Assembly (NCBI GenBank): GCA_027592645.1
Contig: JAQCKI010000003.1
Span: 1 to 61,070, forward strand
DNA from: Chloroflexota bacterium
GTDB lineage: Bacteria > Chloroflexota > Dehalococcoidia > UBA2979
DNA length: 61,070 nt
Direction of reading: 5' to 3'
This document shows, one piece after another, positions 3,135 through 7,868 of this stretch. The translations under genes and the position numbers were made by a program. Each line of letters starts with the position of its first letter. Positions within the stretch are counted from its first letter, which is position 1. A model generated the notes under the pieces. That model was not told the DNA's origin. It ran no database searches and saw only the letters and a program-made list of their open reading frames with translations.

Positions 3135-4715
3135 ATGGCGGTCGACGGTGTTCAGGTGGTCGGCTCAGTCGAGGGGCGTCGAAGCGAGATCCTCTCGGAT
3201 GCTGCGCTCGCCTTCCTCGCTGCCCTCCACCGCCAGTTCGAGCCCGGGCGGCGCGAGGTACTGGCGGCGCGCGCCGATCGACAGGCGCAACTGCGCGCCG
3301 GCGAGCGACCGGGATTCCTTGATGAGACGCGCGCGGTGAGGGAGGGCGACTGGCAGGTGACGCCGCCACCCGCGGGGCTGCGCGACCGTCGCGTGGAGAT
3401 CACCGGCCCCACCGACCGCAAGATGGTGATCAACGCGCTGAACTGCGGCGCGCGCGGCTTCATGGCCGACTTCGAGGACGCCAACTCCCCGACGTGGGCG
3501 AACATGATCGATGGCCAGGTGAACCTGTACGACGCCTCCCGTCGCACCATCGAACTGACCGAGGGTGACCGGCACTACCGGCTCAACGATGAGATCGCGA
3601 CCGTGCTGGTGCGCCCACGCGGCTGGCACCTGGTGGAGCGCCACCTGCAGGTGGATGGCGAACCGATCTCCGGCTCGCTGTTCGACTTCGGCCTCTACGT
3701 GTTCCACAACGCGCGCGCCCTGCTGGAACGGGGCAGCGGGCCCTTCTACTACGTCGCGAAACTGGAGGGGCATCGGGAAGCGCGCCTGTGGGCGCAGACA
3801 TTCGCGTTTGCGGAGGATCACCTGGGCCTGGAGCGCGGCACGATCCGCGCGACGGTACTGATCGAGACCGTGCTCGCGGCGTTCGAGATGGACGAGATCC
3901 TGTACGAGATGCGGGAGCACTCGGCCGGGCTCAATGCCGGGCGGTGGGACTACATCTTCAGCATCATCAAGAAACTGGGCGACGATCGTGCGTTCCTGCT
4001 GCCGAACCGCTCGCAGGTCACTATGACCGCGCCCTTCATGTCCGCATACGCGCGGCTGCTGGCCGCGACCTGCCATCGACGTGGCGCGCACGCCATCGGC
4101 GGGATGTCCGCGTTCATCCCCAACCGCCGCGACCCGGAGGTCACCGAGCGCGCATTCGACCGCGTGCGGGAGGACAAGCGTCGCGAGGCGTCGCAGGGGT
4201 TTGATGGCACCTGGGTCGCGCATCCCGACCTCGTGCCCATCGCAAAGGATGTCTTCGATGGCGTCCTCGGCGACCGCGCGAACCAGGTGGAGGTGCGCCC
4301 GGACGTCTCCGTGGCCGGCGCCGACTTGCTCACCGTGAGCATCGAGGGCGCGGCGTTCACGGAGGCGGAACTGCGCAACAACGTGCAGGTCGGCATCTGG
4401 TACGCCGCTGCGTGGCTCGCCGGCTCGGGCGCGGTCGCGATCCACAACCTGATGGAGGACGCGGCCACCGCGGAGATCTCCCGGTCGCAGATATGGCAGT
4501 GGATCCGCCACGGCGTGGTGCTGGACACGGAGACGCGTGTCACCGCCGACCTCGTCCGCACGGTTGCAGCCGAGGAATGCGAGGCGCTGCGCTCGGTGGT
4601 TGCGCCTGCGGTCGCGGAGCACCTCGACCGGGCGCGCGCACTCTTCGAGCAGTCCGCGCTGACCGAGGAGTTCGTGGAGTTCCTGACGCTGCCCGCGTAC
4701 GAGGCACTGACGTAG
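3135..4715 (+). CDS. aceB: Malate synthase A
   Basis: DRRVEITGP, MADFED, VRPRGWHL, LNAGRWDYIFS, LMEDAATAEISRSQ, FLTLPAY motifs. Confidence 0.97.
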   Translation: MAVDGVQVVGSVEGRRSEILSDAALAFLAALHRQFEPGRREVLAARADRQAQLRAGERPGFLDETRAVREGDWQVTPPPAGLRDRRVEITGPTDRKMVINALNCGARGFMADFEDANSPTWANMIDGQVNLYDASRRTIELTEGDRHYRLNDEIATVLVRPRGWHLVERHLQVDGEPISGSLFDFGLYVFHNARALLERGSGPFYYVAKLEGHREARLWAQTFAFAEDHLGLERGTIRATVLIETVLAAFEMDEILYEMREHSAGLNAGRWDYIFSIIKKLGDDRAFLLPNRSQVTMTAPFMSAYARLLAATCHRRGAHAIGGMSAFIPNRRDPEVTERAFDRVREDKRREASQGFDGTWVAHPDLVPIAKDVFDGVLGDRANQVEVRPDVSVAGADLLTVSIEGAAFTEAELRNNVQVGIWYAAAWLAGSGAVAIHNLMEDAATAEISRSQIWQWIRHGVVLDTETRVTADLVRTVAAEECEALRSVVAPAVAEHLDRARALFEQSALTEEFVEFLTLPAYEALT

Positions 4716-4781: not shown

Positions 4782-5522
4782 TCAGGCCGGTTGCAGGATC
4801 GTCTTCGCCCACTGGGGGTAGGTACCGGTCTCGATCATCCGCTCCTTCACCTCGGTGCGGAGGGTGCCCACCTCCTCGTCGGTCGGTGGCGGTGTCACCG
4901 GCACATTGGAGATGTCGCCGAGTTCGAAGCCGGTGTTGTCCTGCACCTGCTGCGCGGTGAACCCCTCGTGCACTGACTCAAGGCCGTAGCGGTTGGCGGC
5001 ACGGTCGAACGAGAGCACCGCCATGGTGGTGAAGATCTTGAACGCCTCCTGCGGGCGCTTGATCGATGGCGGCGTCACCATCGCGCCGGAGACAAAGTCC
5101 ACCTTTGGGACAAAGGTGCGCTTCGTGTGCTCGGTGCGGAAGAACAGGATCCGCTTCGCCGTGTACGACATCAGCCCGGAGCCGTAGCCACCCGGCAGCC
5201 GCAGGTCTGGCGCGTTGGGGTCGCCGACCACATGGAGGTTGAAGTTCCCCTCCGCATCGAACTGGATCGCGCTGTGGAAGAACAAGTCCAGCTTCCCGCG
5301 CTGTGACAGGAAGTGGATGTCCTTCCCCAGGTTCCGATCCAGTTGCTCGCTGCCCAGGATGATGATCTCCGCATTCGGGGCGTGGCTTGCCTCAGCGAGA
5401 AGCAGCGCCGCCGCCGGGATCATCGAGACTGCCCCGCACGCCGAGATCTCCCAATCGCGGATCTCCCGCGACATGAGAATGGCGAGCAGTTCGTCCGAGT
5501 TACAGGCGACGGCGCTGGTCAT
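4782..5522 (-). CDS. CoA-transferase-fold beta subunit (GctB/IpdB-like)
   Basis: DLFFHSAIQFDAEGNFN, RLPGGYGS, HTKRTFVPKVDFVS, LESVHEG, VQDNTGFEL; ATG directly follows the alpha-subunit TAG. Confidence 0.88.
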   Translation of the reverse strand: MTSAVACNSDELLAILMSREIRDWEISACGAVSMIPAAALLLAEASHAPNAEIIILGSEQLDRNLGKDIHFLSQRGKLDLFFHSAIQFDAEGNFNLHVVGDPNAPDLRLPGGYGSGLMSYTAKRILFFRTEHTKRTFVPKVDFVSGAMVTPPSIKRPQEAFKIFTTMAVLSFDRAANRYGLESVHEGFTAQQVQDNTGFELGDISNVPVTPPPTDEEVGTLRTEVKERMIETGTYPQWAKTILQPA

Positions 5523-6401
5523 CTACGCTCCCCCTCCGGCCGCGTGGGTCTCCACCCGGCTCCCCTGGCGAACCATCGCCTGGTACTCTTCCTCCGTCTT
5601 ACCGATGACGTACTTCTGCAGGTACGCGCGGTACGTGGCGTCGTCGGAGGCGGCGCGCAGGTACTCGCGGATGTGCTCCGCGTCCTGCTCGTAGTAGCCG
5701 GGAACACCAGCGGGGTGCGCGCCGCCCGGGGCGTGCACCACCGCAGTGACGTTGATGGCGGAGATGAACTGGCCGCCCTCGTCGTCCGCGGTGACCTTGT
5801 CCACGATCTCCTCGGCGGTGACGATGACGCGGTTGGAGGCCTGCGCCACCATCACGTCTTCGCCGTGCTTGCGGAGCAGCGCGTTGCCGTCTCGATCCGC
5901 CTTCAGCGCGTGCAGGATGGCGACGTTCGGCGTCTGCGCGATCGCGACGACGGTTTCCTCGGTCGGGTCGAAGGGGTTCGGGGCGATGATCATGTCATCG
6001 CGCCGCTTGAATACGTCCGTGCCGGCAAGGCCACGAACCGGGATGTAAGGGACGCCCATAGATCCAGCCTGGATCATCGAGTAGTGGACGCCTCAGGTGT
6101 TGTCGAGCGCGAAGATTCGACTTTGCTTCAAGAATCGGTCGAAGTTCGGTGCTGCCTGTGCGTACGGCTGGAAGCCGATGCTGCAGCACTCCATCGTCTT
6201 CACCTTCTCGGCACCGACGAGGAAGTCGAGGTTGATCGAACCGCCGACGACTCCGATGACGTGCAGATCCTGCACGTCGCCCCGCGCGAGTTCGCGGAGC
6301 ATTGCCATGGGCGCGTGGTTGAATCCCGCGCTCATCACCACCTGGTCACCGTCACGGACGATCCGCGCGGCGGCCTCCAGGCTCACCAGTTTGCTGCGCA
6401 T
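5523..6401 (-). CDS. CoA-transferase-fold alpha subunit (GctA/IpdA-like) with in-frame TGA at 6093-6095; probable selenoprotein (292 aa)
   Basis: ORFs 6093..6458 and 5523..6077 share a frame and join as ALDNT*GVHYSMIQAGSMGVPYIPVRG. N-terminus MRSKLVSLEAAARIVRDGD with AGAAAGGG upstream; C-terminal HALKADRDGN and GGAHP motifs. Hairpin follows the TGA. Confidence 0.85.
6051..6092 (-). promoter_or_regulatory. Putative bacterial SECIS element
   Basis: mRNA after UGA reads GGCGUCCA-CUACUCGAU-GAUCCA-GGC-UGGAUC-UA-UGGGCGUC: 8-bp lower stem (2 GU pairs), 6-bp perfect upper stem, G-initiated apical loop 23 nt from UGA. Confidence 0.7.
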
Positions 6402-6531
6402 CTCAGCCCTTTCTGCCGGGCGCATATCGCGTACCGGCTCGACGCATGTGCATAACATGCATCATTCGGGTAAAACCTACGCCTGCACTCACGTGCGCGT
6501 CAACGATTCCGCATAGCGATCGGAGCCAACG

Positions 6532-7044
6532 ATGACCACCGCGAGCGGCCTGCTTGGCGCCGGCGAGATTGCGCCCGATTTCACGCTCGCCGCCGCCGAT
6601 GGCGAGCGGTACGCCCTCGCCGGTGCGCTCGCCCGCGGCTCCGTGCTGCTCACGTTCTTCTCGCTCGACTGCCAGGCCTGTGACGCCGCCTATCTCCACT
6701 GGGACGCAGCCTTCGAGGCGTACGCGGGCGACGACTTCTCACTCTGGGCGGTCGGTCTCGACCCGGAGCCGCAGGCGGCAGCGTTCTGGGAGAAGTCCGG
6801 TGTCTCGTTCCCAGTGCTCTTCGACGAAGGCGCGAGCGTGGGGGGCTACCGCCTCGCCTCCACGCCCTCACACGTCCTCGTCGGGCAGGACGGGCGCGTC
6901 GTCACCTCGTTCGACGCGTGGGACCGGCTCGCCTGGAACGGACTGCTGGCCGAGATCGCTTCACGCCTCGGCCGCCCCGCCATCGAGGTCGCCCCCGGCG
7001 ACGCACCGGAGTTCCGCCCCGGCTGCACGGTGCATGCGGGGTAG
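6532..7044 (+). CDS. AhpC/TSA (TlpA/peroxiredoxin-like) thioredoxin-fold protein
   Basis: GEIAPDFTL, CQAC (CxxC), SFPVLFD, STPSHVLV; extra C-terminal RPGC. Confidence 0.82.
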   Translation: MTTASGLLGAGEIAPDFTLAAADGERYALAGALARGSVLLTFFSLDCQACDAAYLHWDAAFEAYAGDDFSLWAVGLDPEPQAAAFWEKSGVSFPVLFDEGASVGGYRLASTPSHVLVGQDGRVVTSFDAWDRLAWNGLLAEIASRLGRPAIEVAPGDAPEFRPGCTVHAG

Positions 7045-7092: not shown

Positions 7093-7515
7093 ATGCCCGC
7101 CCGTCACCTGTCGATTCGCATGGATGAAGACGCGCTCGACCGCCTGGACGCCGAGAGTCGGCGCACCGGTCGCACCCGCTCGGACATCGCCAAGACGTTG
7201 CTGGACGAGGGGCTCCGCATGGAGCGCCACCCCGGCATCGTCTTTTGCACCGGCCCGGCCGGGCGTCGCCCCGCGCTCGCCGTCGGTCCCGATGTGTGGG
7301 AAGTCGCGCGGGTGGTGCGAGACCTCCGCGGTGGCCCCGGAGTCATCGAGCAGGCCGCCGAACTGACCGGACTGCCCGCGCGCGACATCGAGGTGGTCAT
7401 CCGCTACTACGCGGAGCACGCCGCTGAGATCGATGCATGGATCGACCGCGTCGATGCCGAAGCCGCGGAAGCGGAACAGCGCTGGCAGCGGGAGCAGGCG
7501 CTGCTCCAGCGGTGA
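7093..7515 (+). CDS. Antitoxin: ribbon-helix-helix plus DUF433-like domain
   Basis: HLSIRM...RSDIAKTLLDEGLRM (RHH); HPGIVF..GPAGRRP..GPDVWEV..IRYY; GTGA overlap with the PIN toxin gene. Confidence 0.82.
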   Translation: MPARHLSIRMDEDALDRLDAESRRTGRTRSDIAKTLLDEGLRMERHPGIVFCTGPAGRRPALAVGPDVWEVARVVRDLRGGPGVIEQAAELTGLPARDIEVVIRYYAEHAAEIDAWIDRVDAEAAEAEQRWQREQALLQR

Positions 7516-7868
7516 AGTTGCTGCTGGATGAGATGTGGCCACCCTCGATCGCCCGGACGCTGCGGGAGCGGGGTCACGATGTGATCGCCGTCGCGGAGCG
7601 TGACGACCTGCGATCGCAGCCGGACGAGTACATCTTTGCTGCCGCGCAGGTTGAGGGCCGTGTGATCGTCACCGAGAACGTCGCCGACTTCCGCCGCCTG
7701 GCTGAAGAGTTCGTTCGCCTCGGTCGTACCCATCCCGGCCTGATCTACACCACCAACCGCCAGTTCCCACGGGCCGATGCCCGCACCCCCGGGAGCCTCA
7801 ACCGTGCGCTGCTGCGTTTGCTCGACGGCGATGCCGCAATCACCGAGGTCTGGCTGTCGCCCGAGTAG
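7512..7868 (+). CDS. DUF5615 (VapC45-like) PIN-domain toxin
   Basis: MKLLLDEM, RGHDVIAV, PDEYIF, VIVTENVADF, HPGLI; GTG start overlaps the antitoxin TGA. Confidence 0.85.
   Translation: MKLLLDEMWPPSIARTLRERGHDVIAVAERDDLRSQPDEYIFAAAQVEGRVIVTENVADFRRLAEEFVRLGRTHPGLIYTTNRQFPRADARTPGSLNRALLRLLDGDAAITEVWLSPE

Follow-up and report, generated by a model that had tools for sequence, protein, structure and literature searches.

The window analysed here is a stretch of 61,070 nucleotides from a bacterium of the class Dehalococcoidia in the phylum Chloroflexota (contig JAQCKI010000003.1), and our subject is a gene on its minus strand, at 5523..6401, which encodes the alpha subunit of a protein with the family I CoA-transferase fold. 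The gene has 292 codons and a TAG stop and is read through one in-frame TGA (6093..6095). In our opinion it is most likely a true selenoprotein gene that is widespread and is mis-annotated in a systematic way. From the comparison of related sequences we put the probability that selenocysteine (Sec) is inserted in the active-site column of a subunit with the CoA-transferase fold at roughly 0.88; that Sec is inserted at the TGA, whatever the enzyme does, we regard as highly probable. By all indications recoding proceeds by the ordinary bacterial mechanism. The novelty would lie in the protein family and in the position of Sec, within an acyl-CoA enzyme fold that lacks the canonical nucleophile.

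An earlier note on this DNA, made from its letters, had described a single frame broken only by the TGA at 6093-6095 and reading ALDNT*GVHYSMIQAG. We recovered the same frame: on the minus strand, 6458..5523 is open throughout, its sole internal stop is this TGA, and the translation around it is ...RIFALDNT*GVHYSMIQAGSMGVPYIPVRG.... Two open reading frames of the gene-caller track, 6093..6458 and 5523..6077, share this one frame. The probable start of alpha is the ATG at 6401 (MRSKL...), in agreement with the N-termini of homologues (MRTKL or MRDKL), and the product from there has 292 residues, with the TGA as codon 103 (Sec103). Start, frame, homologue N-termini and the evidence for Sec given below all agree with the full-length selenoenzyme of 292 residues that the note had proposed. 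In-frame Met codons occur in the window at 6 and 12 codons past the TGA. The gene for the beta subunit (246 aa; 4782..5522, minus strand), which also matches the CoA_trans family, begins with an ATG immediately after the alpha stop.

The base call at 6093-6095 is consistent in the contigs that cover it. Contigs of four runs from three studies span the site with zero alternative bases, so that neither TGC nor TGG, which the note had named as readings that would undo its proposal, is found there. Two of these four runs are possibly the source of the window DNA itself, and the contigs, being DNA, speak to the base call only. In particular, the three bases show 0 other letters in two records that span them, X3 record 6 and X4 record 8. 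Near-identical contigs are present in runs labelled as aquatic, estuary and marine metagenome. The window genome (G000) is a single metagenome-assembled genome (MAG) of 2.15 Mb in 157 contigs, with 69% G+C and 87.5% completeness.

What happens to this gene in databases is easy to illustrate. A search of a collection of 5.8 billion proteins with the 311-aa read-through translation, in which the TGA is residue 122, returned 326 matches, and among the best 120, which were listed, 117 begin at query residues 124-134, that is 2-12 residues past the TGA; the first residue of the listed proteins is M in 119 and V in 1. These truncated entries are named 'hypothetical protein' (some of those at NCBI) or 'glutaconate CoA-transferase subunit A' (JGI), and the note's expectation that standard gene callers would split the gene describes them well, as 117 of the best 120 matches are C-terminal fragments. 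The three of the best 120 that do span the site (289, 288 and 291 aa, with 78, 63 and 50% identity) carry Cys at it without exception: P0002 (78% identity), P0003 and P0019 read DNTCG at the TGA position.

The same picture emerges from nucleotide data. TGA is the aligned codon in 6/6 loci from named MAG records. A class-wide genome search gave 30 fetched loci, one of them the window itself and one a contig-end fragment that stops short of the site; the remaining 28 have TGA in 27 cases and TGC in 1. Taken together, the non-window loci number 34, and this column is TGA in 33 of them, down to 38% protein identity, and TGC in one, with the reservation that two identical loci (L019 and L041) may be one genome counted twice. 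In a sample of 401 genomes of the class, 113 match at E <= 1e-30. The best 60 rows (E <= 8.1e-44) comprise 55 with an in-frame TGA, the exact column being verified at the codon level in 28 of these 55, as well as 4 with a Cys codon and 1 fragment. Further stops were examined in four loci (two rows with two TGA codons and two with TAA), where each of them either precedes the start codon or ends the gene. In all, seven homologues with a Cys codon at the site were available for comparison. The residue in close homologues is thus Cys or the codon TGA, and not Trp, Arg or Gly, just as the note had anticipated for related alpha subunits; the 'DATCP' motif that it named does occur, in a paralogue (L055).

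Weaker rows of the search are paralogues, in which the site holds Ser (5), Thr (2), Asn (4), Glu, Ala, a gap, or Cys (3). A maximum-likelihood tree of 55 rows (with L020 and L037 left out and the Sec column coded X) unites 34 Sec and 4 Cys rows as a single clade, supported at 100/99, apart from 17 paralogues. The position is invariant as Sec or Cys across this clade. A sample of 401 genomes spread evenly over the phylum contains three with a match at E <= 1e-40, namely the window genome, one of the same class and one of another class (G674, with TGA). Hence, in the genomes searched, the alpha family is mainly a trait of Dehalococcoidia. As separate observations on the paralogues, those from other Dehalococcoidia genomes (L053-L069) hold Ser, Thr, Asn, Glu or Ala in this column, each in a clade of its own, and one weak paralogue row (G185:C254:1142-2014, minus strand; E = 7.8e-38) has one in-frame TGA. 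In paralogous alpha subunits it is apparently at this single position of the active site that the CoA-transferase fold diversifies.

Downstream of the TGA the note had seen a two-stem hairpin with a G-initiated loop 23 nt away. Both stems are indeed part of the minimum free energy fold of the window (whole element 6051..6092, minus strand). The lower stem pairs GGCGUCCA (6092-6085) with UGGGCGUC (6058-6051), and the upper stem pairs GAUCCA (6075-6070) with UGGAUC (6066-6061) around the loop GGC (6069-6067), whose first G is 23 nt past the A of UGA. A stem-loop 3' of the UGA with a G in the apical loop is a feature of the bacterial selenocysteine insertion sequence (SECIS), and the bacterial SECIS (bSECIS) model allows a spacing from UGA to loop of roughly 16-37 nt. 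The two stems fare differently among relatives. The apical hairpin GAUCCA-GGC-UGGAUC (6061..6075, minus strand) is conserved, as judged by RNAalifold, covariation and frozen synonymous codons; the lower stem is kept in the window's own clade only, is 70.8% paired across the family and is often broken in relatives, and we do not count it as part of the conserved element.

This statement about the apical hairpin rests on an alignment of 25 stretches, each starting 3 nt before the TGA and amounting to 24 distinct sequences for the counting of pairs. Eleven bases, TCCAGGCTGGA, are invariant across all 25. RNAalifold folds the alignment into a 7-bp hairpin closing the GGC loop, the upper helix is 97% paired over the 24 distinct sequences, and two of its seven pairs covary: pair 25:37 is CG, GU or AU, and pair 23:39 is UA, GC, UG or GU. 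The score for covariation is 0.216, compared with 0.083 in shuffles; it was reached by none of 500 shuffles and collapses when the partner columns are slid. The codons provide an internal control. The peptide (I/V/L)-Q-A-G is written xTC CAG GCT GGA in 34 of 34 TGA forms, whereas GCT GGA occurs in none of the seven Cys forms, which use GCC, GCG or GCA followed by GCG, GGA, GGG or GCC. To judge by these codons, the synonymous sites are frozen only where the UGA must be recoded. Further, the loop core resembles that of the experimentally defined element of E. coli fdhF (CAGGTCTG vs CAGGCTG), and also that of the hairpin after the UGA of the window genome's own selD. A genome-wide scan for an in-frame TGA followed by the core CAGG(N)CTG gave 13 matches which, besides the alpha gene, are apparent shadow frames.

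The organism has the means to read UGA as Sec. The note had pointed to the sel genes as a check, and all that were sought turned up in the window genome: selA (546 bits) and selD (352 bits) score above their curated cut-offs, selB has 302 bits with a cut-off of 242, and a tRNA-SeC(tca) gene was found. The selD gene itself has one in-frame TGA, at the known Sec site SCAG*AGK. Because selA, selB and tRNA-SeC are present together with a selD that carries TGA at its canonical site, the sequence comparison tells us that at least one established selenoprotein of this organism is made by reading UGA as Sec. We add that this selD (locus L010) lies at 60816-61754 on the minus strand of contig C73 of the window genome and is followed, ~32 nt past its UGA, by a hairpin with the loop AGGUC. 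Across the class sample, selA occurs in 300 of 401 genomes and in 55 of the 55 that have the TGA form, which we take as consistency rather than as a statistic, related genomes not being independent. Among the four genomes with close Cys forms, two (G063 and G177) have selA and two (G106 and G085) are absent from the selA-positive list.

With regard to the protein, the Pfam family CoA_trans (PF01144) matches alpha with E = 2.5e-18 over residues 28-225 of the 311-aa read-through, that is, across the TGA. A profile built from 20 family members was matched to chains of the Protein Data Bank (PDB) and found the glutaconate CoA-transferase subunit GctA (1poi_A, 7.2e-58), IpdA (6co6_A, 2.1e-47; 6con_A, 8.2e-44) and AibA (5mzw_A, 4.1e-47), with weaker matches to the classical succinyl-CoA:3-ketoacid and acetate CoA-transferases. 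In these alignments the Sec/Cys column holds Gln in GctA, Gly in AibA, Glu in the IpdA chains 6co6_A and 6con_A, and Ala in 6coj_A; the residue of IpdA, Glu in 6co6_A and Ala in 6coj_A, appears from this to have been deliberately mutated. An hhalign comparison with E. coli AtoD (97.6% probability) likewise puts Sec on the Gln of VPQGT. Hence, in the place of the Gln which transferase alpha subunits have in their P-Q-G-T motif, and of the Glu which is found in alpha subunits of the IpdAB type, the family has Sec or Cys; a distant paralogue (L066) does have Glu. The motif around the site is D-N/S/T-T-U-G/P, with a lone Sec. The family alignments contain no second conserved Cys in either alpha or beta, a finding that speaks against a selenenyl-sulfide redox couple of the classical kind.

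The beta subunit follows alpha directly in 36 of 36 loci and has no internal stops. Its match to CoA_trans has E = 1.3e-10, and its profile finds AibB (2.3e-26), GctB (8e-25) and IpdB (5.1e-21). Family I CoA-transferases have a catalytic Glu in beta (in the motif SENG; Glu54-beta of glutaconate CoA-transferase, GCT), and the question is whether it has a counterpart here. Five AibB chains vary at a single position (C, V, A, S or N), the Cys56B of the literature, and this column falls on I55/L56 of the window beta and is hydrophobic throughout the family, so that the Cys of the AibAB type is absent as well. An alternative hhalign register, with E. coli AtoA, puts the Glu of SENG on Glu59 of the window beta, at a probability of 68%; in the 36 non-window beta sequences the column of Glu59 holds E, R, D, P, A, S, N and others. 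No acidic residue is conserved at beta positions 50-60 in these 36 sequences and the window. Judged by these alignments, the transferase nucleophile is not conserved in beta under either register, and the family resembles IpdAB in the absence of the beta Glu.

It is useful to place this pair of subunits beside its known relatives. GctAB of Acidaminococcus fermentans (PDB 1POI) and AtoDA of E. coli have the same fold and the same two-gene layout of alpha and beta; GctA is the best solved match to alpha, and the motif x-G-x4-Q/R-A-G-x-x-G-x-P around the site is common to alpha and AtoD. Unlike the family described here, these enzymes carry Gln at the Sec column together with an essential beta Glu, and none of them is a selenoprotein. 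IpdAB, the hydrolase that opens the ring of COCHEA-CoA in steroid catabolism (PDB 6CO6, 6CO9, 6COJ, 6CON), has the fold without the beta Glu, as here, and is not a transferase; according to an extract of PMC5380842, Gly57-beta of IpdAB stands where GCT has its essential Glu54-beta, and IpdAB has no transferase activity. The differences are that IpdA has Glu at the column where alpha here has Sec or Cys, that only ~25-30% of the alignment is conserved, and that the hosts are Actinomycetota and Pseudomonadota for IpdAB and Dehalococcoidia here. No steroid-catabolism neighbours (echA20, ipdC, fadA6) were seen in flanks of 1.5-3 kb, which is the reach of all our statements on neighbourhood. The third relative, the 3-methylglutaconyl-CoA decarboxylase AibA/AibB of Myxococcus xanthus (PDB 5MZW-5N03), reuses the fold for another acyl-CoA reaction that is not a transfer, and AibB is the best solved match to beta. 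Its active site has a thiol in place of the carboxylate nucleophile: an extract of PMC7756340 states that Cys56B replaces the catalytic Glu of glutaconate CoA-transferases. In AibAB, however, the thiol is on beta, at the Glu54-beta column, and AibA has Gly at the Sec column, whereas here the former column is occupied by hydrophobic residues and it is alpha that carries the Sec or Cys.

As for selenoproteins in general, the catalogued bacterial ones share with alpha the in-frame UGA, the Cys homologues, the hairpin within the coding sequence after the UGA, the dependence on selABCD and the truncation in databases. Most catalogued families, however, resemble thiol oxidoreductases (UxxC or CxxU), while alpha has a lone Sec in an acyl-CoA enzyme fold and no conserved partner Cys.

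A number of observations weigh against our interpretation, and we prefer to state them together. The energy of the hairpin is ordinary: its 71-nt stretch folds at -17.4 kcal/mol, the mean of shuffles being -20.25 (z = +0.95), and 164 of 200 shuffles fold as well or better. Folding energy was therefore rejected as evidence for the hairpin, and the case for it must come from comparison across sequences. There, the aligned sequences are related, so that the shuffles overstate the significance of the covariation; the covarying columns also alter the encoded amino acids (I/V/L and S/A), and pair 23:39 is U-U in the window itself. For the first two of these reasons we give the synonymous-site control more weight than the covariation. 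The loop here is GGC, while that of E. coli fdhF is GGUC. No Rfam family matches the hairpin, and a permissive scan of 5800-6300 gave four matches at chance level, none of them related to SECIS. On the side of the protein, no partner Cys is conserved near the Sec and a classical redox motif is absent; the identification of the Glu that IpdA has at the Sec column with the catalytic Glu105 is provisional; the window beta does have Glu59 in the AtoA register, if only at 68% probability, and a transferase function may apply to the window's own clade. Finally, the neighbourhood gives no consistent pathway, since only beta is kept in all 36 loci and the other genes vary by clade.

How do other explanations of the TGA compare with Sec insertion? 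It could be a real stop, with alpha naturally split into an N-terminal piece of ~102 aa and a C-terminal piece of 172-184 aa that assemble with beta. Gene callers annotate the gene in just this way in 117 of the best 120 database entries, and the Met codons 6 and 12 codons past the TGA of the window fit such a split. Yet close homologues are contiguous, with Cys exactly at the TGA codon; the in-frame stretch from the TGA to the following Met is conserved (GVHYSM, GVLYSM); clade f6 (PVTLTGLQAGANGVP...) lacks a Met near the TGA; the downstream synonymous sites are frozen in TGA forms only; and all 55 TGA-bearing genomes have selA. We give a split subunit only a slim chance of being correct. The idea of a pseudogene, or of a sequencing or assembly error for TGC or TGG, draws on the moderate quality of the one MAG from which the window comes (87.5% complete, in 157 contigs), but the same TGA stands in 33 loci of other genomes, contigs from the runs of three studies contain it with no variant at the site, the rest of the frame is intact and conserved, and beta is free of stops; this explanation is vanishingly improbable and, we would say, effectively already refuted. 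A very slim chance is what we allow for read-through without Sec, by near-cognate Trp, Cys or Arg or by a lineage-specific reassignment, with the hairpin as a general stimulator. The assignment of Sec does come from sequence comparison, and the hairpin loop differs from that of E. coli. Against this, the residue aligned with the TGA in homologues is Cys, the hallmark of Sec sites; the Sec machinery is complete and selD uses TGA at an established Sec site; selA co-occurs in 55 of 55 genomes; and each gene has a single internal TGA, with no sign of general reassignment.

The alternative that deserves most discussion accepts the insertion of Sec and doubts what it is for. The enzyme may be an ordinary family I CoA-transferase, in which a beta carboxylate carries CoA and Sec either replaces the Gln that hydrogen-bonds to the thioester or is redox-regulatory. 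The fold and the closest solved relative, a glutaconate CoA-transferase, speak for it, as do the name 'glutaconate CoA-transferase subunit A' given to the fragments at JGI, the position of Glu59 of the window beta on the Glu of SENG in the hhalign register, and a gene for a ResA-like thiol-disulfide oxidoreductase that lies divergently upstream in nine close loci. On the contrary, orthologues that are 40-73% identical have R, D, P, A, S or N in place of Glu59, and the better-supported register, anchored on AibB (E = 2e-26), leads to a hydrophobic nucleophile column. IpdAB and AibAB, the two solved relatives without the beta Glu, do not act as transferases. Sec is also costly to encode, and an invariant Sec or Cys across the clade suggests direct catalysis. 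In our opinion an ordinary transferase is unlikely. Given Sec insertion, a non-transferase enzyme with a catalytic Sec strikes us as an evenly balanced proposition.

Under our preferred explanation, a selenoenzyme of the CoA-transferase fold, events would run as follows. The hairpin at 6061-6075, within the coding sequence, would recruit SelB with Sec-tRNA(Sec) to the UGA, and the ribosome would then make one alpha subunit of 292 residues with Sec103, translationally coupled to the beta gene (4782-5522). Alpha and beta would form a heterodimer of the family I CoA-transferase fold. This enzyme would act on an acyl-CoA thioester without being a transferase, in the manner of IpdAB and AibAB, and Sec (Cys in some relatives) would presumably be the nucleophile or an acid/base. 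Reactions with precedents in the fold are hydrolytic or retro-Claisen cleavage of C-C bonds, decarboxylation and isomerisation. More tentatively, and with the odds rather against us, we suggest that the selenolate of Sec103 might attack the thioester or a beta-carbonyl carbon, with a selenoester or seleno-hemiketal intermediate, and so, by a thiolase-like or retro-Claisen reaction, open or cleave a carbon skeleton; in that case the CoA-transferase fold would have its first selenoenzyme here.

The surroundings of the gene were considered as a guide to its function and set aside, as the neighbours are specific to clades and suggest no single pathway. We describe them for completeness. In the window, a gene of the AhpC/TSA / Redoxin family (6532-7044, plus strand), ResA-like and with a DCQAC motif, is divergent from alpha and is kept in nine close loci; it may be a redox partner, or its place beside alpha may be mere synteny among close relatives. 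Past it lie two overlapping small open reading frames of 140 and 143 aa (7093-7515 and 7437-7868, both on the plus strand) in a layout like that of toxin-antitoxin pairs. On the other side, a malate synthase gene (3135-4715, plus strand; all three Pfam domains, E = 1.5e-102) is convergent with beta. In the clade f6, the most divergent Sec clade with the motif DST-U-PV (L019:4643-6046, plus strand, and seven further loci), a gene of the GuaB3 family, related to IMP dehydrogenase (TIGR01304, 401 bits, above the cut-off), comes right after beta, with a TRZ/ATZ-type deaminase upstream and a family III CoA-transferase downstream. The neighbours in another clade (f21) are SecDF and an amino-acid dehydrogenase.

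The note had left it undecided whether this family was already catalogued as a selenoprotein. A review of May 2026 (PMC13188914), which calls itself the most comprehensive inventory, lists 119 families and subfamilies in its Table 1, and there is no CoA-transferase or PF01144 entry among them. NCBIfam 20.0 has no specific model for alpha and gives sub-threshold matches to generic transferase models only. The main texts of deep-Sep (2025) and BSepDB (2026) mention no such family, though their supplementary lists could hold one, and none of the papers listed by full-text literature searches deals with a selenoprotein of the CoA-transferase family; one of them (PMC1924859) contains the term sought in a reference only. 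Hence the alpha family is uncatalogued in the sources searched, and we do not claim its absence from every database. Dehalococcoidia are known to be rich in selenoproteins, since BSepDB reports MAGs of this class with 46 and 49 selenoprotein genes.

As long as the gene is cut in two, metabolic reconstructions of Dehalococcoidia miss or misread an enzyme which is present in 55 of the 401 genomes sampled. The selenoproteome would gain a family outside the thioredoxin-like redox proteins, and with it a broader range of chemistries for which the cost of Sec is paid. Natural pairs of Sec and Cys forms that are 78% identical offer a comparison of selenium and sulfur in catalysis. In the column in question transferases have Gln, IpdAB has Glu, AibA has Gly, paralogues have Ser, Thr or Asn, and the present family has Sec or Cys; these alignments make it look like the switch by which the CoA-transferase fold is adapted to other chemistry. 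If the acyl chemistry suggested for Sec103 is true, selenium would here serve C-C or acyl chemistry rather than redox chemistry, in a catabolic step that is widespread in Dehalococcoidia.

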